IMG/VR virus record: IMGVR_UViG_2609459792_000007
Direction: 5' to 3' (one strand)
Source: a virus
Taxonomy: Duplodnaviria; Heunggongvirae; Uroviricota; Caudoviricetes
DNA: 64,000 nucleotides
A model generated the notes under the pieces. It did not search any database and was not told the DNA's origin. It saw nothing but the letters and a program-made list of their open reading frames with translations. The position numbers and the translations under genes are program-made. Shown here piece after piece: positions 6,022-64,000 of the stretch; the first letter of the stretch is position 1, and every line of letters begins with the position of its first letter.

Positions 6022-6504
6022 ATGAATTTTATCGCTACTGTAAACGCACCCGCACATGGCAATATCGCTGTAACGTTCTCTGACATTGAAAAACGAGTAC
6101 TTGGTGCATGGCGCGACAATGAGACGGTAGAACTGTCAGCACAAGAAAAATGCATTATTGCACGCGACATCATTGGCAATCGTCGTTACTCGCGGGTATT
6201 TGAGAAAGCGTATGTGGTAAATTCTGGGTTCGGAACGTTCGTCTTTCCGGTGCGCTCCGGGCGATTCTGCCAGTCCAAGCTGATTGAGTTCGCTACGCAG
6301 ATTTCTGTCTGGATTAAAACTCAATCGTCGTTCAAATTTTCCGACGATGAAGCAGTATCGCAGGGGATGCGGATCGCCAACAATGCGATTAAATGCAAAA
6401 ACATTACGTATACCGCTGGCGTTGACACATGGAAACTGTTTTGCGCTAACTTTATGCTGAATGTATACGCAAGCAACCGCATCCACATCCTTGATGGCGT
6501 GTAA
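6022..6504 (+). CDS. hypothetical protein (160 aa)
   Basis: ATG with RBS aaggaa; preceded by promoter/operator module. Confidence 0.65.
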   Translation: MNFIATVNAPAHGNIAVTFSDIEKRVLGAWRDNETVELSAQEKCIIARDIIGNRRYSRVFEKAYVVNSGFGTFVFPVRSGRFCQSKLIEFATQISVWIKTQSSFKFSDDEAVSQGMRIANNAIKCKNITYTAGVDTWKLFCANFMLNVYASNRIHILDGV

Positions 6505-6513
6505 CTGAGAAGA

Positions 6514-6535
6514 GGGCCAGAAACGGCCCTTTCTC
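6514..6535 (+). terminator. hairpin terminator
   Basis: gggcc-agaaac-ggccc followed by tttctc. Confidence 0.6.
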
Positions 6536-6553
6536 TATAGCCACCAGCTGCCG

Positions 6554-6633
6554 CAGGGAAATTTTCAGAAACGGCGAGGAACGTATTCATGAGCCGACGG
6601 GAAACGGCCAGGATTTTTTCGGGAAACGGCTGC
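6554..6633. repeat. second iteron-like cluster TTTTC(A/G)GGAAACGGC
   Basis: cagaaacggcgagg 6566, cgggaaacggccagg 6598, cgggaaacggctgc 6620; last two exactly 22 bp apart. Confidence 0.55.
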
Positions 6634-7088
6634 ATTCGCCTTTATGTAGAAAAAACATCGGGAAGCTGGTGGAATCCAACCAGCGGTTGTCGGACAGGCG
6701 AGCGGGGAAAATTATGATGACTTTCGTCGCCTGATACATCCAGATTTCTTTCGTAGCGTAATCACATACGTGATTAAGTGGTGTGATTATGTGAAAAATC
6801 ACGCGCACATAATACGCGAGCGGACACAGAACAACACAAAATGCCGATCCGCGCCGACAAATAAACGCGGATCACATAGCAAGACTAAAAGCCAATGATT
6901 AACCATACGCTATAGCGCAATATAACGCGTTTTAAGCGCGTTAATGTGTTAAGTAATGGGTATGTACTGGCAAGGATATAAAAGCGCGTCTATGGCGTTA
7001 TTTTGGCGCTTATTTTTATGTTGTTGGAGTGAGTTAAAGACAATAAAAAACGCCCCATCATGGGCGGGTTATGGGGGGAGTATTGAAA

Positions 7089-7128
7089 AAAAAAAAAGCG
7101 CCCATGGGGGGCGCTCGATTTTATTTGT
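7089..7128. terminator. bidirectional hairpin terminator
   Basis: A-run, gcgccc-catgg-ggggcgc, T-run; ends the minus-strand 8274-7121 operon. Confidence 0.7.
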
Positions 7129-55681: not shown

Positions 55682-55756
55682 GATGGTGTAGCTCAGCGGT
55701 AGAGCAGTTGGCTGTTAACCAACTGGTCGGTGGTTCGAATCCACCCACCATCGCCA
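55682..55756 (+). tRNA. tRNA-Asn (anticodon GTT)
   Basis: Manual cloverleaf: acceptor gatggtg/caccatc, D arm gctc-agcggta-gagc, anticodon loop ctGTTaa, T loop ttcgaat. Confidence 0.85.
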
Positions 55757-55761
55757 ATTTA

Positions 55762-55848
55762 GGGGAGTTAGTCCGTAGAGGTAGCGGGGTAGACTGTAAA
55801 TCTACTGTCATGGAGACTCGGGTGGTTCGACTCCATCACTCCCCACCA
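55762..55848 (+). tRNA. tRNA-Tyr (anticodon GTA), long variable arm
   Basis: Acceptor ggggagt/actcccc, anticodon stem-loop gtaga-ctGTAaa-tctac, long variable arm, T loop ttcgact, 3' CCA. Confidence 0.7.
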
Positions 55849-55852
55849 AATT

Positions 55853-55928
55853 GCCGGTTTAGCTCAGTTGGTAGAGCGCCTGCCTTGTAAGCAGGATGTC
55901 AGCGGTTCGAGTCCGTTAACCGGCACCA
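55853..55928 (+). tRNA. tRNA-Thr (anticodon TGT)
   Basis: Acceptor gccggtt/aaccggc, D arm gctc-agttggta-gagc, anticodon loop ctTGTaa, T loop ttcgagt, 3' CCA. Confidence 0.8.
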
Positions 55929-56152
55929 ATACAACGATAAGATCATTACGGTTAATCGTCGTTCATGTGCACAATGACTGGTCGAAAGGTAGTGATCTTA
56001 CCGTTGTGGTGGATTCGCAGACTGATGCGATAGCTTTCTTGGATGTTAGGGAAATGCGGCCGCAAATCTTCCCTTTCGCGAGCGGTGATCGTCCGTAGTC
56101 CTAATTGGCTGCACCGTATGCCGGAGATTCAGTACCGGCCACCACAACGGCC

Positions 56153-56239
56153 GGAGAGTAGGGAGCATGGTGCTCAAGCGGTCTTGAAAACCGTCCCATT
56201 GCGCAAGCGATGATGGTTCGATTCCATTACTCTCCGCCA
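56153..56239 (+). tRNA. tRNA-Ser (anticodon TGA), long variable arm
   Basis: Acceptor ggagagt/actctcc, anticodon stem-loop gcggt-ctTGAaa-accgt, long variable arm, T loop ttcgatt, 3' CCA. Confidence 0.7.
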
Positions 56240-56811: not shown

Positions 56812-57053
56812 CGATCACTATCTACGGACGAGATAACTGCTCATACTGCAAACGTGCGGTCGAGCTGGCGAAGCAACTAAAGGGACATGGCTACGGTGAT
56901 TATGAGTACATAGACATCACCACTGCCGGTATCGACAAGAAAAAACTAAGTGAAATTGTTGGTAAACCGGTAGAGACTATCCCCCAAGTACTGATCGATG
57001 GTCAACCGATTGGCGGATACACAGAACTGGCTGCATACGTCAGCACCCTCTGA
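56808..57053 (+). CDS. glutaredoxin-like (NrdH-type) redox protein
   Basis: CSYC active-site motif near N-terminus; 81 aa. Confidence 0.75.
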   Translation: MTITIYGRDNCSYCKRAVELAKQLKGHGYGDYEYIDITTAGIDKKKLSEIVGKPVETIPQVLIDGQPIGGYTELAAYVSTL

Positions 57054-57131
57054 TTTTAACGGCTCACAGGAGCCGTTTTTATTACCACCAAACTCACTCC
57101 CATTTCCCTTAAAATTCAAAAAACAACGTCA

Positions 57132-57263: not shown

Positions 57264-58367
57264 ATGAAAAATAGCTTTGACAGAGCACGCGCTGCGGAGA
57301 ACACCTCAAAAGAGGCGATTGAGTATCTCGAAAGAGCATCTCAAATGCAGGCCGTTATGATCTCGCAGGTTAGCATTGATATGAGATTCTCGGACGCATT
57401 CATGTTATTCACTCGCTTATCTCTGCTGATAACCAGACGTCGGCCAGAGATCGCTGTTCATTGTATTTTGATACATGTTTTGCCGCACATTGCCGATGTA
57501 AAAGTAAGTGACATTAATAGGTTCATGGTGAACCAGCTGGTCAACCCACTAATACTGGATGGCAAAATTGTTATGGGCCGCCGCGTTTTCTCTCTGATGA
57601 AACAGTTCCTTAGCTGGTGCGCCTTCCAGGGGATGATAGACGTGTCACCGTTAAACGATATGTCACTAAACAAAGTTGCCGGTGGCGCAAAGCCCACACC
57701 TCGCGAGCGGAAGCTGACCGACGCAGAGGTATGGGTGTTCTGGAATATATGGGACTACTTCAATGTGTGCGCTGGTACAAAATGGGCGGCCAGGCTGTGT
57801 CTTGTATCAGCAAGACGACCTGACGAAGTACTGCGGGCTAAAAAAAGTGAGTTCAATCTTAAGCGTGGGGTTTGGAATCAAGGCAAGAGAAACAAGTCAG
57901 CACGTGAGCATTCGCTGCCTTTAAGCACATTAATGCGCACATGCATTGAAGAGTTGTTCGAATACGGTAAAGACAGCCAGTGGCTCGTGCCTTCGAATAA
58001 AAAAATCGGGAAAGACCTTCCTATGTCTAAAGTGGCAATAGCCCAGGCATTACGTCGTATTCTGGAACGACCAGAACTGATGGAGCTTGAGCCATTTACA
58101 CCCCGAGATTTGCGCCGTACTGCGCGTAGTTACTTCCCAGCATTAGGCATAAGCCAGGAGGTATCACGCAAAATCATGAACCACAGTCTTGAGGGGATAG
58201 ATCGGGTCTACGACCGGCACGATTATATGGACGAGATGCGAGACGCCTTAGAAAGTTTCTCGACGTACATCGCATCAATCGTAGAGCAACCGGATTTAGA
58301 CGAAATTGACCACAAATTCAAGGGAGATCGTCTATCAACAGAGCTTATTCGTGTAAATTTTTCATAG
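57264..58367 (+). CDS. tyrosine recombinase / integrase family protein
   Basis: C-terminal catalytic-domain-like residues (ARRPDE, DLRRTARSY, MNHS, RVYDRHDY). Confidence 0.7.
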   Translation: MKNSFDRARAAENTSKEAIEYLERASQMQAVMISQVSIDMRFSDAFMLFTRLSLLITRRRPEIAVHCILIHVLPHIADVKVSDINRFMVNQLVNPLILDGKIVMGRRVFSLMKQFLSWCAFQGMIDVSPLNDMSLNKVAGGAKPTPRERKLTDAEVWVFWNIWDYFNVCAGTKWAARLCLVSARRPDEVLRAKKSEFNLKRGVWNQGKRNKSAREHSLPLSTLMRTCIEELFEYGKDSQWLVPSNKKIGKDLPMSKVAIAQALRRILERPELMELEPFTPRDLRRTARSYFPALGISQEVSRKIMNHSLEGIDRVYDRHDYMDEMRDALESFSTYIASIVEQPDLDEIDHKFKGDRLSTELIRVNFS

Positions 58368-58748
58368 AGACTTTATGGCCTCAACAACCTTTTGTGATGC
58401 GCCTTTCTCTTTACCGAATCGCTCGTTATACGCAGCAAGAACCTGTTTTTCGTCCTCGTTAAGAGGAGCGGTGCCTTCTTTGTATAAAAATGCTGCGAGT
58501 TCAGGTTGGCGTTCTTCCAGCACCATCATCATAAGACGACTTGGTTCAATACCCAGCGCCAGCGCCAGCGGACGAACCTTATCGATAGGCAAAGGAATTT
58601 TGCCACTTTTAATTAAAGAAAGGTTGTTGGCATTTTTATAACCAATAAGTCTGGCTATTTGGGCCTGACTCATAGGTGAGGATTCAATCAGCCCTGCGAT
58701 AAAAGCAGCATAGCGACTTTCTATAAATTCAATCTTGTTGTCAGACAT
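58362..58748 (-). CDS. XRE-family helix-turn-helix transcriptional regulator
   Basis: HTH-like segment SQAQIARLIGYKNANNLSLIKSGK in a 128-aa protein. Confidence 0.7.
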   Translation of the reverse strand: MSDNKIEFIESRYAAFIAGLIESSPMSQAQIARLIGYKNANNLSLIKSGKIPLPIDKVRPLALALGIEPSRLMMMVLEERQPELAAFLYKEGTAPLNEDEKQVLAAYNERFGKEKGASQKVVEAIKSL

Positions 58749-58786
58749 TGTTACAACCTTTGCGCGTTTAATTCTCTCTGGTAAGT

Positions 58787-58800
58787 GCTTACCGATATTA
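58787..58800. promoter_or_regulatory. palindrome GGTAAG-TG-CTTACC upstream of regulator gene
   Basis: Perfect dyad about 40 bp upstream of the regulator start; related to family B. Confidence 0.45.
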
Positions 58801-58999
58801 CATCAAAGGTTAGGGTTGTAAAGCTATTATCATTTTTTTCGGCAGGCACTTGTAAGACCGAGCAAAGGTCCATGCATGGAGAAAAACTAGCCCAAAATAG
58901 GTAAGAAAATTAACTTGCATCTGATATAGATGTATTCAGTATTGATACAAATTTTAGTAGTATTCCTTACCATAGTATAAGTTAGAATGGATTGATTGA

Positions 59000-59212
59000 A
59001 TGAAAACCACTATTTCCAGCCTAATCGCTCTTGAGATCGGACACGTACAGAAATTAGCTGATGAGTGTGTAGCTGACATCCTCACCGATCTACCGAATGA
59101 GCAGATTCAGGTTGGTGTGAATGACACAACTGGCTTTATATTCGAACTTAACAACAAACGCTTCACGCTTCTCAATACCGGCTCCGGGTCTTTAGCCGTC
59201 AGAATCTGTTAA
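59000..59212 (+). CDS. possible small protein (70 aa)
   Basis: ORF in AT-rich intergenic region; followed by hairpin ctgcgcgaa...ttcgcgcag. Confidence 0.3.
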   Translation: MKTTISSLIALEIGHVQKLADECVADILTDLPNEQIQVGVNDTTGFIFELNNKRFTLLNTGSGSLAVRIC

Positions 59213-59310
59213 CCCCTCTTCTCCCTGCGCGAATGGCTTAGTTCCCTGTTCGCGCAGTGCTACATTAAACACACTAGTAAATAATTTGTTTTCATAACAA
59301 AGGATTAGCC

Positions 59311-61419
59311 ATGTCTAAAAAACGTTCCATCAAAGAGGTTCAGGACTTCCGTGACAGTGTAAAACGAGTAGTCGCTCTCCTTTCAGGTAAAAACATCCCT
59401 GTTGCAGAACGAGGGGACGACGCTTATGTACGCTATAACGATGATGGAGAGCCAATTCTCGTAAACATCCCATCAATCCCGGATAACGCAACACCGGCAT
59501 TGATGAATGCTGTGCGCGGATTTCTCGATCATGAGGTTGCTCACATTTTGTTTACCGATATTCGTGTGTCCAACAAAATGAGAGAAAAAGGACGCGTTCC
59601 TTCCTGGTCGCTATGGAATGCCTTAGAAGACGTGTTCATCGAGCGAAAAATGGGTCAGGTCTTTAACGGAACAAGACGTAATCTGATGGCAACTCAGCGC
59701 CTTATAATCGAAAAAGTCTTTAAACCAAAGGCTTCAGAGGCTATTGCTTATTGTGGCAAAGATCAGCGCGCGCTTTTTCTAAACTTCTTTCTCTGTCCGG
59801 TTGTAAGAGCCTGGGATGGCCAAGCACCGTTCGTAGATTTCATGGATGAATATTGGCCTGTCATTGAGAAACCAATTTCATTATTAAAAGAACATGGTAT
59901 CGATGTGGCCGTGCGTAACATGTCTTGCACCGAGGATTGTGTAAAGGTGGCTGCGACCATAGCTAAGATCCTCAAAGACACTGAAAGTGAAAGCAAAGGT
60001 AAGGAGTCAGCTCCGGGAAAAACTTCCGATCCTTCAGACGCTGACCAGACGGATGCCTCTGGAGAAAACAATGAAGACAACGAAGATCATGAGACACCCT
60101 CATCGTTAGATAATCACAAATCTATTAAATCAGAGTCACATAGTAAGCACAAACATGATAATAACGACAGTGATGATTCAGATAATCCTGAATCATCAGA
60201 AACAATATTCGATGATACAGAAAATGATAAAGCGGTATCAGATTCTGATGCTTCTGATAACGCGGCGTCAGAATCATTAACCGCTGACCACGAAAAAAGA
60301 AAAACGACAGAAGACGGCTCTTCAGACATTCCAACTCCGTCAAAAATGAGTCTGGAAGAGGCTTTAGAGGAGTTGGATAGCATGGAAGATGAAGTCGGAG
60401 GCATGACAGAAGATGCGCTATCCGAAACGATTAAAAGCGAGTTAACAGAAAGCTCGAAAAGCGAATACAGGCCATACAATCGCTCATACGACTTCATCGG
60501 CTCGATTGATCAGGCAGAAGCCCATATCAAACGGCTTATTAAAACATTCTCCGATATTGATTTAGGTGGATATCCAATCAGCCGTTATCGCATCGTTCCT
60601 GAAGGCAACCAACTCTTCGACAAATATATTGAAAAGCACCTTTCGTCAGGTGTTTCGTCGACGCTGGCAAAAGACCTGGAACGTGCAATAGCAAGCAGAA
60701 ACAGAGTTCAGTTTATACCTGGCCAGCGTCGGGGGCGCATTCATGGTTCAAGTATCTACAGATTAACAATGAATGATGATCGCGTGTTTCGTAAAAAAGA
60801 AGAATCTAAAGCCGTTAACGCCTGTGTTCAACAAGTGATTGATTTATCGGGTTCAATGAGTGGCGAAACGATAAAACTAGCTCTTGCAAGTGCATATACC
60901 ATCGCCGATGCACTTGATCGAATAAATGTTCCCAACATTATCACCGGCTTCACTACATTTGGCAGTCATATGGCAGCAGGAGAACTTAAGGCTATCAAAT
61001 ATGAGTTCTCTCGCTTTGAATCTTTAATGCTACCTATCATCAAAAATTGGAATGAAAAAGCAAATTCTCGCGAAGTTCGCTCACGTATGGGGTGCGTAGG
61101 CTACACATTCCCACTTCTTAATAACGTGGATGGTGAAAGCATAGCCAGCCTTGCATCGTTATTTTCCGGTCGCTTGGAGGACAGGAAGATCATGCTTGTT
61201 CTGAGCGATGGCGCGCCGTGGGCTGTTGGGAGAGGTTTTGACGCCCATTTGCGTTCGGTTACGAAGCAAATTGAAACGCAGACTGACATTGATTTGATGG
61301 CAATTGGCATCATGACTGATGCACCGGAGAGATTTTACGCAAATCATGCCCTGGTAACTAGTGTTGATAGTCTTGGTTCATCTGTAGTTACTGAACTATC
61401 TCGTATCATTTTGAAGTAA
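59311..61419 (+). CDS. CobT-like von Willebrand factor A domain protein with acidic linker
   Basis: MIDAS-like motif VIDLSGSMSG; long D/E/S-rich low-complexity region. Confidence 0.65.
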   Translation: MSKKRSIKEVQDFRDSVKRVVALLSGKNIPVAERGDDAYVRYNDDGEPILVNIPSIPDNATPALMNAVRGFLDHEVAHILFTDIRVSNKMREKGRVPSWSLWNALEDVFIERKMGQVFNGTRRNLMATQRLIIEKVFKPKASEAIAYCGKDQRALFLNFFLCPVVRAWDGQAPFVDFMDEYWPVIEKPISLLKEHGIDVAVRNMSCTEDCVKVAATIAKILKDTESESKGKESAPGKTSDPSDADQTDASGENNEDNEDHETPSSLDNHKSIKSESHSKHKHDNNDSDDSDNPESSETIFDDTENDKAVSDSDASDNAASESLTADHEKRKTTEDGSSDIPTPSKMSLEEALEELDSMEDEVGGMTEDALSETIKSELTESSKSEYRPYNRSYDFIGSIDQAEAHIKRLIKTFSDIDLGGYPISRYRIVPEGNQLFDKYIEKHLSSGVSSTLAKDLERAIASRNRVQFIPGQRRGRIHGSSIYRLTMNDDRVFRKKEESKAVNACVQQVIDLSGSMSGETIKLALASAYTIADALDRINVPNIITGFTTFGSHMAAGELKAIKYEFSRFESLMLPIIKNWNEKANSREVRSRMGCVGYTFPLLNNVDGESIASLASLFSGRLEDRKIMLVLSDGAPWAVGRGFDAHLRSVTKQIETQTDIDLMAIGIMTDAPERFYANHALVTSVDSLGSSVVTELSRIILK

Positions 61420-61432
61420 TTAAAACAGCCTT

Positions 61433-61457
61433 AATGATAAGTAACTACTTACCATAG
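61433..61457. promoter_or_regulatory. family B motif GATAAGTAACTAC
   Basis: Between the CobT-like and CobS-like genes. Confidence 0.45.
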
Positions 61458-61514
61458 TTAATGGTATATTTATATAAGAACTTGAACGCTCATTAGAGAA
61501 CAAAGGAAAAGCGC

Positions 61515-62750
61515 ATGACTACTACTGCACTGCAAAATGATAAAAATCCTTCTGATTACCTTGTTTGCAAGTGGTGCGGCAAATCATTTCACTATTTTAA
61601 GTCCCATGTAGCCAATGGTAATTGCGAGGGCATTCCTGAGTCAGTAAAAGATGCCGATCCTGACACCGTACTGAAAATGTACACAACGCAGTTTCCAGAT
61701 GAACCAACGCTATCGAAAAAGGCACTTGATGCAATTCAAGCTAAACGTGCCGAGCAAAAAAGCGAAATGGCGAAATCTTCTGGCTTGACCAGTAGCCCAG
61801 GCTACACAGGCACAGTTGAGTACAAGACAGATCTGGTCGCAGCTCACGAACTGCTAAACGTAACGGTGGAAGAACTCGGAACAAAACGTGGGACGCCGCT
61901 CATGGTTAGCGTCAACGTCAATACGCCGTATCCAGAGTTCGTTCCAGAAGTGAAGAAGGGCTACGTATATGGCGACTTCGAACTTATCAAAGATATTTTC
62001 ATGATGCTTGAACTTGGCATACCTGGCTATTTGTGGGGTCATGCAGGAACAGGCAAATCGTCATTGCCTACACAGCTATGTGCTTTGCTCAATCGTCCGT
62101 TGATCCGTGCCCAACATACAGCATCAATGGAAGAGGCACATGTTACGGGGCAAATTCTGGCGCGTGATGGCTCTACGTATTTCGAGCCTGGCTTGCTTGC
62201 GCTCGCAATGAAGCATGGCTGGGTTTACCTCGCGGATGAATACGACTTTGCGTTTCCACAAATTCTTGGCGTGTATCAGCCAGTGCTGGAAGGTGAGGCG
62301 TTGGTCATCAAAGAGGCAACTCCAGAATGGCGTCGCATTACTCCGCATGAACGGTTTGCTTTCATTGGCACTGGCAACACAAACGGTTCTGGTGATGAAA
62401 CCGGCTTGTACCAGGGTACAAACATCCAGAACGCCGCGAACTTTTCACGTTTTGGCATCGTTTCGAATGTGAAATACATGAGCAAAGAGGCAGAGATCAA
62501 CATGTTGATAAATGCCGGTATCGTGGATGAATACGCAGAAAAGATGGTTAAGTTTGCCGGTATCGTTCGCGATGGATACGAAGAACACCTTATCAGTCAG
62601 CCAATTGGCCCTCGTGAACTTTTGTTGTCGGCCAAGATTGGAATGATGCGAGGCGACTTTGTGACAGGTATTGAGCGTTCTTTCATTAACAAACTCCCTT
62701 CAGCTTCTGCACAAGCGGCTCGTGAAGTTGTTCAAAAAATATTTGGTTAA
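61515..62750 (+). CDS. CobS/MoxR-like AAA+ ATPase
   Basis: Walker A GHAGTGKSS, Walker B VYLADEYD. Confidence 0.7.
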   Translation: MTTTALQNDKNPSDYLVCKWCGKSFHYFKSHVANGNCEGIPESVKDADPDTVLKMYTTQFPDEPTLSKKALDAIQAKRAEQKSEMAKSSGLTSSPGYTGTVEYKTDLVAAHELLNVTVEELGTKRGTPLMVSVNVNTPYPEFVPEVKKGYVYGDFELIKDIFMMLELGIPGYLWGHAGTGKSSLPTQLCALLNRPLIRAQHTASMEEAHVTGQILARDGSTYFEPGLLALAMKHGWVYLADEYDFAFPQILGVYQPVLEGEALVIKEATPEWRRITPHERFAFIGTGNTNGSGDETGLYQGTNIQNAANFSRFGIVSNVKYMSKEAEINMLINAGIVDEYAEKMVKFAGIVRDGYEEHLISQPIGPRELLLSAKIGMMRGDFVTGIERSFINKLPSASAQAAREVVQKIFG

Positions 62751-62929: not shown

Positions 62930-64000
62930 ATGAAGGCACTGATGGTTCGAACTGACTTCTCACTTGGGGAGTCGGCTCTAAAAGCAGAAAACGCGGTGAA
63001 GATTGCCAGAGAAGCTGGCTACACCGCTGTAATTTCAGCAGATAGCATGAATATTGCGAGCGTTATTCCACTACAACGTGCCGCTGGTGACGACATGGCG
63101 GTTATTTGTGGTGTGAAACTAAACATTGTTGATGATCCCACATACGAGCACCGGGCTAAACTTGCTAAAGAATCTATGAGATGTATGGAATCATTAGAGC
63201 GGGGACGTAACTACTCGTTTACCGCTCTAATTAAAAATGAGCAAGGATATCGCGACATCTGCGAACTAATGACGGCGGCCAACACACGAGAACAGTTCTA
63301 CTTTGTACCGCGTCTCTCGCTCGAACAGTTGGTTTCTACATATGCCAAAGGCAACATCATCCTGCTTACTTCCGACATCGGTAGCGTGTTCCAACGCAAC
63401 GATTTTGCAAAAATCATAAGCACACTGATTACAGCGGGTGGAAAAGACAACTTCTATAGTGTGGTTTATCCGCACCCTACCCCATTCTACGACCAGATTA
63501 ACGTCCGGGCGATGAAAGTCGCCAGCGCATTGAAAATAGAGCCAGTGGCGTTCTATCCCGCTTATTACGAATCGATCGACGATGCAGACATTAAAGACAT
63601 TGCGCACATGGTTACGAACAACATAAAAATCGACCAGCCGCATCGTCTGCGTATCCCCCACCAGCGAGATAACGCCGTCAATGGTCGCCGCCATCTCCTT
63701 GAGGCGCTTAAAGCCTTCTCCGTTCGCATGGATGTGCCGGTAACAGCTGCAATGGCCTCAACAACGCAGGACTCCATTATCGAAGCCTGTACATGGCGCT
63801 GGCATGAATTGCCACCAGCACTGCCCAAGATGGCAGACGACGAGCCTGCAACGCTGATGAAACTGGCTGTTGCAGGGCTGCGCAAACGTCTTACCACAAA
63901 AGAGTTTGGCTACACACCACCGGCTTCTGAGAACAGGGTTTATGTTGAGCGACTTAAGTACGAAATGGACACGCTTACTCGCCTGGGATTTTGTGGTTAC
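62930..64000 (+). CDS. DNA polymerase III alpha-like protein, N-terminal PHP region (3' end outside window)
   Basis: Open frame from ATG 62930 (RBS aaagg) to window end, absent from ORF track because it has no stop; layout resembles DnaE N-terminus. Confidence 0.6.
   Translation, partial: MKALMVRTDFSLGESALKAENAVKIAREAGYTAVISADSMNIASVIPLQRAAGDDMAVICGVKLNIVDDPTYEHRAKLAKESMRCMESLERGRNYSFTALIKNEQGYRDICELMTAANTREQFYFVPRLSLEQLVSTYAKGNIILLTSDIGSVFQRNDFAKIISTLITAGGKDNFYSVVYPHPTPFYDQINVRAMKVASALKIEPVAFYPAYYESIDDADIKDIAHMVTNNIKIDQPHRLRIPHQRDNAVNGRRHLLEALKAFSVRMDVPVTAAMASTTQDSIIEACTWRWHELPPALPKMADDEPATLMKLAVAGLRKRLTTKEFGYTPPASENRVYVERLKYEMDTLTRLGFCGY

Follow-up and report, generated by a model that had tools for sequence, protein, structure and literature searches.

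What a gene pair resembling the cobaltochelatase subunits CobT and CobS does in a phage-plasmid of Escherichia coli is the question raised by the stretch of viral DNA analyzed here (IMG/VR record IMGVR_UViG_2609459792_000007; 64,000 nucleotides (nt), hereafter the window), which carries the two genes at positions 59311 to 62750. The window shows 97.8% nucleotide identity to Escherichia phage Cyrano (OV696614), 97-98% identity to phages CMS-2020a and PhiR41_1, and 74% identity to Salmonella phage SSU5; by these similarities, it is classified as an E. coli phage-plasmid of the SSU5/Cyrano type. Cyrano is the phage-plasmid pLF82 of the adherent-invasive E. coli strain LF82, where it is maintained at ~5.5 copies per cell and gives rise to siphovirus particles (PMC9928086). 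The reading that we favor, with moderate confidence, is that the pair serves the lytic cycle of the phage-plasmid as an ATP-driven machine for remodeling and cutting proteins and is not a cobalt chelatase.

Both open reading frames (ORFs) are located on the plus strand, as are all features described below unless noted otherwise, and are separated by a 95-nt gap. ORF1 (59311..61419) encodes a CobT-related protein of 702 amino acids (aa), and ORF2 (61515..62750) encodes a CobS-like, MoxR-class AAA+ ATPase of 411 aa. In comparison with SSU5, synonymous sites are saturated across the pair (synonymous divergence, pS, 0.73-0.85), whereas the nonsynonymous divergence (pN) ranges over 0.12-0.22, being 0.12 for the ATPase and 0.15-0.17 for the two folded domains of ORF1, with 0.42 in the ORF1 linker. 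A HMMER scan of 1.8 billion cluster representatives revealed 1148 homologue clusters at 50% identity (E <= 1e-3), the nearest protein cluster contains 3307 member sequences, and tblastn produced matches in 494 phage records. The low pN against the saturated pS and the many homologue clusters indicate true genes and not chance ORFs, and both genes are under purifying selection. The proteins of the pair are 98-99% identical to proteins that are already annotated. At >=95% identity, the pair was found in 219 of the 5426 complete E. coli genomes (~4%), in all cases on plasmids of ~110 kb and never on the chromosome; in these plasmids, PGAP labels it 'cobaltochelatase CobT-related protein | AAA family ATPase'.

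In the ORF1 protein, a zincin-like N-domain is followed by an acidic linker, then by a connector, and last by a VWA domain with a MIDAS (metal-ion-dependent adhesion site). Pfam assigns residues 9-292 to the CobT family (PF06213, E=3e-27) and residues 492-701 to the CobT_C VWA family (PF11775, E=5.7e-83), and the protein belongs to PHROG 1576, a family of unknown function (E=6e-301). A previous reading of this locus from the sequence only had proposed a CobT-like VWA protein with a long acidic low-complexity linker, paired with a CobS-like AAA+ ATPase; the Pfam profile search confirms these families (PF11775, PF06213, and PF07728 in ORF2), and the linker is recognized by its composition and pN at residues 226-385 (59986..60465), which contain 30% D+E, 27% S+T, and 17% hydrophobic residues and evolve ~2.5 times faster than the folded domains. 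The VWA domain (60781..61416) displays the MIDAS motifs DLSGS at residues 511-515 (nt 60841-60855), GFTT at residue 546, and LSDGAP at residue 631. Its residues D511, S513, and S515 are invariant among six divergent viral homologues, and by these residues the MIDAS site is complete. The best solved relatives of ORF1 are the CobT VWA structures 21vt_A (E=6e-16) and 9uka_G (E=2e-13).

The N-domain (residues 1-225; 59311..59985) has a predicted gluzincin-like fold and contains two conserved elements: (i) the sequence HEVAH at residues 74-78 (59530..59544), confirmed in the checked translation and by family conservation, which corresponds to the zinc-binding and catalytic motif HExxH, and (ii) a helix with the sequence NALEDVFIE at residues 103-111 (59617..59643), identified from alignments and an AlphaFold2 model, with near-invariant N103, E106, D107, and E111, one of which is a candidate third zinc ligand. 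Among the 146 best representatives aligned, with 33-73% identity, H74 is kept in 145, E75 and H78 are each kept in 144, and N103, E106, D107, E111, and G120 are each kept in at least 140. The HExxH motif is also present in very distant proteins, as HECYH in ICP2-like phages and as HEVGH in cyanophage S-PM2. In the CobT-like protein of Pseudomonas phage Nican01 (L003:5844-7925), SEISK replaces HExxH, while the MIDAS and the remaining scaffold are kept; judging from these replacements, this protein is a natural protease-dead variant.

To compare the viral site with that of genuine CobT proteins, we recovered 80 cobT loci and examined the N-terminal 300 residues of the 75 full-length CobTs. None of the 75 contains HExxH, and the homologous position is occupied by [SA][MI]AL[RK]. 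In the hhalign profile-sequence alignment, viral RGFLDHEVAH faces RGLGDSMALR of genuine CobT, and viral NALEDVFIERKM...G...NL faces DAVEQARVEAIG...G...NL. From this alignment, the N-domain scaffold is therefore common to viral and genuine CobT proteins, whereas the metal-binding and catalytic residues are not. The peptidase step evidently became dispensable in genuine CobT too. The contrast at the zincin site, 144 of 146 viral proteins versus 0 of 75 genuine CobTs, is an addition of the present analysis.

AlphaFold2 modeled the N-domain confidently (pLDDT 91.4, pTM 0.86), with two short strands, the HExxH helix at residues 62-81, and the next helix at residues 99-117 with the N/E/D/E motif. 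Motif and model thus suggest the arrangement characteristic of gluzincins, in which the HExxH helix is followed by a downstream helix carrying a glutamate ligand. Foldseek found no significant match to this model in the Protein Data Bank (PDB), and, among viral models (BFVD), it showed this domain in fusion with VWA in siphoviruses, podoviruses, tailed viruses of haloarchaea, and actinophages. Queried by sequence with the N-domain, as a single sequence or as a 15-sequence profile, the PDB yielded neither the solved N-region of CobT nor a peptidase, and Pfam at E-values up to 1 returned the CobT family only and no peptidase family. By these results, the zincin assignment is strong at the level of the motif and weakly supported at the level of the fold. 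A separate observation is a borderline profile match of 45 aa between the NxxEDxFIE helix (ORF1 residues 97-141, window ~59599-59733) and AcrIIA26 (PDB 9zq6_B, E=0.01), which is probably due to chance.

ORF2 matches AAA_5 (PF07728, E=2.1e-15) and PHROG 249, which is labelled 'porphyrin biosynthesis' (E=2e-106). Its best solved relative is CobS (9ujv, E=1.8e-25), aligned over residues 142-411 only, followed by Midasin, CbbQ, and NorQ. The Walker A motif GHAGTGKSS (62037..62063; G175, G178, G180, and K181), the Walker B motif YLADEYD (62226..62246; D241 and E242), the sensor-1 residue N288, and R312, R352, and R367 are invariant among six homologues with identity down to 22%. By these motifs, ORF2 is an AAA+ ATPase of the MoxR class in which every catalytic residue is intact. 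The N-terminal extension of 140 aa includes, at residues 18-31 (61566..61607), a Cys2His2-like element of the form C-x2-C-x4-H-x4-H (CKWCGKSFHYFKSH) that precedes a conserved Y..FP..P.LS motif. This element is kept only in the DnaE-linked lineage, is degenerate in Rhizobium phage RHph_N2_6, and is absent from the ICP2-like and cyanophage proteins.

The relationship to the cobaltochelatase was assessed using the NCBIfam equivalog cut-offs for CobT (TIGR01651) and CobS (TIGR01650) as a yardstick of orthology. ORF1 scores 69.1 bits against TIGR01651, with only residues 297-697 aligned (cut-off 759), and ORF2 scores 84.9 bits against TIGR01650 (cut-off 558.55). The likeness to two cobaltochelatase subunits that was noted from the sequence therefore stands at the level of homologous domains but does not extend to orthology, and on these scores the two proteins are distant relatives of CobT and CobS. 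ORF1 has the C-terminal VWA/MIDAS domain, the acidic linker, and the N-domain that are typical of CobT, and has HEVAH in place of the degenerate [SA][MI]AL[RK] site of genuine CobT. The gene order differs as well: cobS precedes cobT at genuine alphaproteobacterial loci, whereas the T-like gene precedes the S-like gene in every phage examined.

The earlier reading had also remarked on the absence of CobN and other cobalamin genes and had pointed to a CobN partner beyond the window as the observation that would speak against it. Neither CobN nor a corrin gene is encoded in the 64-kb window, where the only ORFs longer than 1000 aa are those for the tape measure, the tail-tip protein J, and the tail fibre, and neither CobN nor any corrin gene was found in the 46 kb of the Cyrano genome beyond the window. 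That region of Cyrano encodes the class I ribonucleotide reductase (RNR) NrdA/NrdB, ThyX, and dihydrofolate reductase (DHFR); because the RNR belongs to class I, the element creates no vitamin B12 demand of the class II RNR kind. On established knowledge, both CobN and an aerobic cobalt-insertion (corrin) pathway are lacking in E. coli and Salmonella (Lawrence & Roth 1995; Roth et al. 1996). In the Cyrano record (OV696614), the two genes are named 'dimethylbenzimidazole phosphoribosyltransferase' (CYRAN_47) and 'cobalamin synthetase' (CYRAN_48). These names are an annotation error, since they collide with the unrelated nomenclature of Salmonella, in which CobT and CobS are enzymes of nucleotide-loop assembly (PMC8749415); the name 'cobalamin synthetase' has been used for cyanophage cobS too (PMC9983427). 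We argue that a B12 annotation cannot be right in enterobacterial hosts.

The genomic context links the pair with DNA replication and recombination. The gene order shared by Cyrano and SSU5 runs helicase/primase, ligase, tRNAs, the T- and S-like genes, a DnaE-type polymerase, UvsY, a gp32-like single-stranded DNA-binding protein (SSB), an exonuclease, and RecA. Pseudomonas phage Nican01 and Rhizobium phage RHph_N2_6 have the same module, and so do metagenomic relatives of 33-40% identity, including one integrated prophage next to pheST-rplT-infC. The ICP2-like podophage JSF27 has several small ORFs between the pair and the helicase and PolA genes downstream of it, and the T4-like cyanophages S-PM2 and P-HM2 have the pair flanked by gp46/gp47 on one side and by gp45/gp44/gp62/regA/gp43 on the other. 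Adjacency and the T-then-S order are kept in all of the five divergent phage lineages examined, and the link of the pair to replication and recombination genes outlasts three changes of polymerase family.

Published expression data place the pair in the lytic programme. In RNA-seq of the uninduced LF82 lysogen, normalized counts were 7.8 for CYRAN_47, 6.7 for CYRAN_48, and 10.1 for the DnaE gene CYRAN_49, compared with 96 for the repressor and 7084 for the moron CYRAN_43, by far the highest Cyrano gene in lysogeny (S1 Table, PMC9928086). By these counts, the pair and the polymerase are both silent in the plasmid-prophage state. The pair is neither a plasmid-maintenance nor a lysogenic-conversion gene. 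In the infection time course of cyanophage P-HM2, PHM2_135 and PHM2_136, which we verified to be the 'peptidase' (T4-GC 146) and cobS, are classified as Early in the light and Mid in the dark, and not as Late (PMC5082946, supplementary file 3). In ocean metagenomes, cobS is present at ~1 copy per myocyanophage genome at any depth, and its function in infection was stated by the authors to be unknown (PMC9983427). The cobS gene is among the 25 cyanophage core genes and falls outside the two core genes that were experimentally shown to encode virion proteins (PMC3037559). As for the region just upstream of the pair, a perfect 9-bp inverted repeat with a 15-nt loop, 59225-59233 (CTGCGCGAA) and 59249-59257 (TTCGCGCAG), lies between a 70-aa ORF and the cobT-like start. 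In macrophage samples of LF82 at 6 h, expression falls from log2 10.7 for CYRAN_46 to 5.9 for CYRAN_47, and this drop suggests that the repeat at 59225-59257 is a candidate attenuator or terminator.

We propose that a MoxR motor, a VWA/MIDAS adaptor, and a tethered zincin would act together in the early-to-middle lytic programme, because the ATPase, the MIDAS, and the zincin signature are intact and the tether is acidic and flexible, and also because the proteins are not orthologous to CobST, CobN is missing, expression is lytic only, and the genes are placed in the replication module. By analogy with the characterized relatives CobST, BchID, NorQD, CbbQO, and Rea1, the following steps may be envisaged: (i) the ATPase ring would dock the VWA adaptor, as in CobST, BchID, and NorQD, (ii) the MIDAS would capture an acidic residue of a protein client that stands in for CobN, (iii) ATP hydrolysis would pull on or remodel this client, and (iv) the zincin domain on its flexible linker would cleave the client or a partner. 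The action would fall in the early to mid lytic phase, and the client would most probably be a component of replication or recombination or an interfering host factor. An ATP-driven chaperone or remodeling pair had already been suggested by the sequence-only reading; this idea fits all the evidence and is retained in our preferred reading. Its interpretation as a whole is partly supported, since it overlooked the near-invariant HExxH signature, the fact that the module has long been known from viruses, and its nature as a lytic replication module that is silent in lysogeny.

Several points weigh against this proposal. Proteolysis is dispensable at least in the Nican01 lineage, because the HExxH motif has been lost there. 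The synteny may mean only that the genes share a temporal class and not a function. The timing data come from the distant homologue in P-HM2 and from uninduced lysogens, and not from an induced Cyrano-type element, and for the lack of CobN in E. coli we rely on published work. In literature searches, we found no experimental study of viral CobST function.

Among the more specific and the competing explanations, two survive best, and each of them seems doubtful. The first sharpens the proposed machine into a two-component, ATP-driven, MIDAS-targeted protease for phage replication and recombination, which would strip and cleave a DNA-bound or replisome-associated protein, for example a host replisome or roadblock protein, and so enable takeover by the phage polymerase, as an analogue of FtsH or of Cdc48-Wss1/SPRTN; as worded, we rate this version as unlikely. 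The second, to which we give a similarly small chance, assumes an effector of host takeover or counter-defence that inactivates a host defence or stress protein early in the lytic cycle by remodeling or cleavage and has no role in replication. The early, lytic expression, the conserved protease site, and the spread of the pair over very different hosts and polymerase types agree with such an effector, and bacterial vWA-MoxR systems are described as conflict systems (PMC7159879). Yet genes of this kind are usually variable or patchy, whereas this pair keeps its synteny as a core gene down to 33% identity, and one conserved target would be needed across E. coli, cyanobacteria, Vibrio, and haloarchaea. 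PADLOC produced a single weak match, to DrmE on the acidic linker, which we judged spurious; a defence system was accordingly set aside as a candidate.

A chaperone and protease for virion assembly that folds, assembles, and processes structural proteins is slightly less probable still. This role was proposed for the same domain architecture by analogy with p618/p892 of Acidianus two-tailed virus (ATV) (Iyer et al. 2021, PMC7824862), and a viral MoxR/VWA precedent in tail development is cited there. The location and timing of the pair speak against it: it is always found next to replication genes and never in the structural module (window ~12-42 kb), it is expressed Early/Mid and not Late in P-HM2, a phage that has its own gp21 head protease, and its members (T4-GC 146 and 150) are outside the two cyanophage core proteins that experiments have assigned to the virion.

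The role of a metallochaperone, which in the manner of NorQD, CoxDE, and the chelatases would insert or exchange the metal cofactor of a phage-encoded metalloenzyme, for example that of the class I RNR or of DnaE in its PHP domain, is improbable. Many characterized MoxR/VWA pairs mature metal centers. NorQ and CbbQ are among the PDB matches of ORF2, NrdAB is present in Cyrano, and a DnaE with a PHP domain adjoins the pair in the SSU5-type lineage. The ICP2-like and T4-like phages, though, have the pair without DnaE, we identified no one metalloenzyme that all carriers share, and the conserved HExxH is left unexplained.

The weakest explanation is the published one that viral CobST acts as a chelatase motor that hijacks a host CobN (or ChlH-type) subunit and raises cobalamin synthesis (Liu et al. 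2021, PMC8651126), which is very improbable here and might still hold in hosts with CobN but without CobST, such as cyanobacteria or haloarchaea: homology to CobS/CobT and the solved CobS as the best PDB match speak for it, whereas the equivalog scores fall far under the cut-offs, no CobN is encoded by the element or, on established knowledge, by hosts that also lack the aerobic pathway (E. coli and Salmonella), the class I RNR creates no B12 demand, the intact HExxH has no role in chelation and is absent from 75 of 75 genuine CobTs, the pair stays silent in lysogeny, the stage at which a gain in host metabolism would matter, and it behaves as an environment-insensitive core gene, unlike an auxiliary metabolic gene.

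The neighborhood of the pair includes several further features. Downstream, the 5' part of a gene for a DnaE-type DNA polymerase III alpha subunit (62930..64000; CYRAN_49 in Cyrano) runs off the window and represents the conserved downstream neighbor. The DnaE that adjoins the pair has a C-terminal UDG-like Pfam match in three loci (L088:7198-10524, L091:14615-17989, and L090:3914-8847), and in the last of them three small genes separate the two ORFs into which the polymerase is divided. Upstream, the 70-aa ORF (59000..59212; PHROG 2627) is the first gene of the rightward unit, and a divergent gene for a helix-turn-helix (HTH) repressor-like protein, the homologue of CYRAN_45, is located at 58362..58748 on the minus strand. 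Genes for a tyrosine integrase and this divergent HTH repressor (57264-58748) are found just upstream of the pair in Cyrano-type elements and are absent there in SSU5; an integrase is unexpected in a plasmid-maintained element. Repeated GGTAAG/CTTACC half-sites, among them a near-palindrome GGTAAGTGCTTACC at ~58780-58793, are found in the intergenic stretch that separates the repressor gene from the rightward unit (58776-58975) and are candidate operators. A consensus scan for promoters and terminators across 58.2-63.1 kb gave counts no higher than in shuffled sequence.

Two further candidate functions were rejected. A repressor-cleaving protease of the ImmA/IrrE type, considered in view of the adjacent HTH repressor, does not agree with SSU5 and most relatives, which have no adjoining repressor, or with the silence of the pair in lysogeny. 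A role in plasmid maintenance was rejected given the location of RepA and the partition genes elsewhere and the lack of expression of the pair in the plasmid state. Further upstream, ~886 bp of Cyrano (6230-7116) are reduced to ~90 bp in the window (57025-57115), and CYRAN_43 is thus missing from it. Four tRNA genes are clustered at 55682-56239 (Asn-GTT, Tyr-GTA, Thr-TGT, and Ser-TGA); the Cyrano annotation has only three of these, without Tyr, and SSU5 has tRNA-Asn only.

Homologues of CobT and CobS in a phage were first noted in 2011, in Vibrio phage ICP2 (PMC3037004). Liu et al. 2021 described the cobST cluster as widespread in tailed viruses of bacteria and archaea, with cyanophage cobT mostly annotated as a peptidase (PMC8651126), and Iyer et al. 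2021 described, in T4-like jumbo phages, a MoxR AAA+ - vWA chaperone pair with an N-terminal metallopeptidase, for which a role in virion assembly was proposed (PMC7824862). The cobST cluster of viruses and the MoxR-vWA-metallopeptidase architecture have thus both been published before, and the pair is a known module. It occurs in hundreds of phage genomes as a widespread, mis-annotated core gene pair and will not surprise specialists. Besides the zincin-site contrast, the present analysis adds the breadth of the replication-module synteny, the combination of silence in lysogeny with early/middle expression, and the enterobacterial argument on B12.

Viral cobS and cobT, which are core genes of marine T4-like cyanophages, are routinely counted in viromics as B12 auxiliary metabolic genes, and some records mislabel them as cobalamin synthase or dimethylbenzimidazole (DMB) phosphoribosyltransferase. 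We argue that this label is wrong, at least for the present element and probably in general, because the pair, conserved in an element whose E. coli host is unable to use a cobalt chelatase, stays silent in lysogeny, belongs to a replication module, and keeps the zinc-protease site that genuine CobT has lost. If the reading as a replication protease is true, the widespread marine 'cobS' marker would be unrelated to vitamin B12. Cyrano in LF82 and SSU5 in Salmonella are genetically tractable, and the function of the pair is testable in E. coli.

Comparison of the pair with known systems, from the most remote to the closest, places it as follows. FtsH and Cdc48/p97 with Wss1/SPRTN, in which an AAA+ ring is combined with an HExxH protease and of which Wss1/SPRTN acts at replication forks, resemble the pair conceptually only; no sequence or fold relation between FtsH, Wss1, or SPRTN and the window pair was detected by the PDB profile search or Foldseek. 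No MoxR-class ring is known to thread its substrates. The p618 (MoxR) and p892 (VWA) proteins of ATV, which can be likened to the pair by their description, are the only viral MoxR/VWA pair with experimental data, as far as cited in PMC7824862; they differ in having no peptidase domain, in serving extracellular tail development, and in belonging to an archaeal non-tailed virus. The Mg-chelatase BchI/BchD, NorQ/NorD, CbbQ/CbbO, RavA/ViaA, and Rea1/Midasin all combine an AAA_5-type ATPase with a MIDAS VWA partner, as here, and presumably follow the same logic, with the MIDAS holding on to a client that the ATPase remodels. Their clients are known (the porphyrin-binding subunit, NOR, Rubisco, respiratory complexes, and pre-ribosomes), and none of these systems has a zincin domain on its VWA subunit.

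The aerobic cobaltochelatase CobS/CobT (EC 6.6.1.2; P. denitrificans/Brucella type; PDB 9ujv and 9uka) is closer: its AAA+ and VWA/MIDAS domains are homologous to those of the pair, the acidic linker and the adjacency of the genes are shared, and the N-domain scaffold of CobT is homologous to the viral one, with RG..D.....,.A.E....E, and G...NL aligned. The viral pair is set apart by missing the equivalog cut-offs ~7- to 11-fold, by HExxH (144/146 vs 0/75), by the reversed gene order, by the lack of a CobN partner, and by the 140-aa N-terminal extension of the ATPase, which has no counterpart in CobS. The closest relatives are found in the viral cobST or MoxR-vWA-metallopeptidase group, exemplified by the cyanophage 'peptidase' T4-GC146 with cobS, ICP2 ORF41/42, and SSU5_049/050. 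The window pair belongs to this group and shares with it the PHROG families, the T-then-S order, the HExxH, MIDAS, and AAA+ motifs, and the placement by replication genes. Within the group, the SSU5/Nickievirus branch is distinguished by the addition of the Cys2His2 element in the ATPase and by a tight linkage with DnaE instead of gp43 or PolA.

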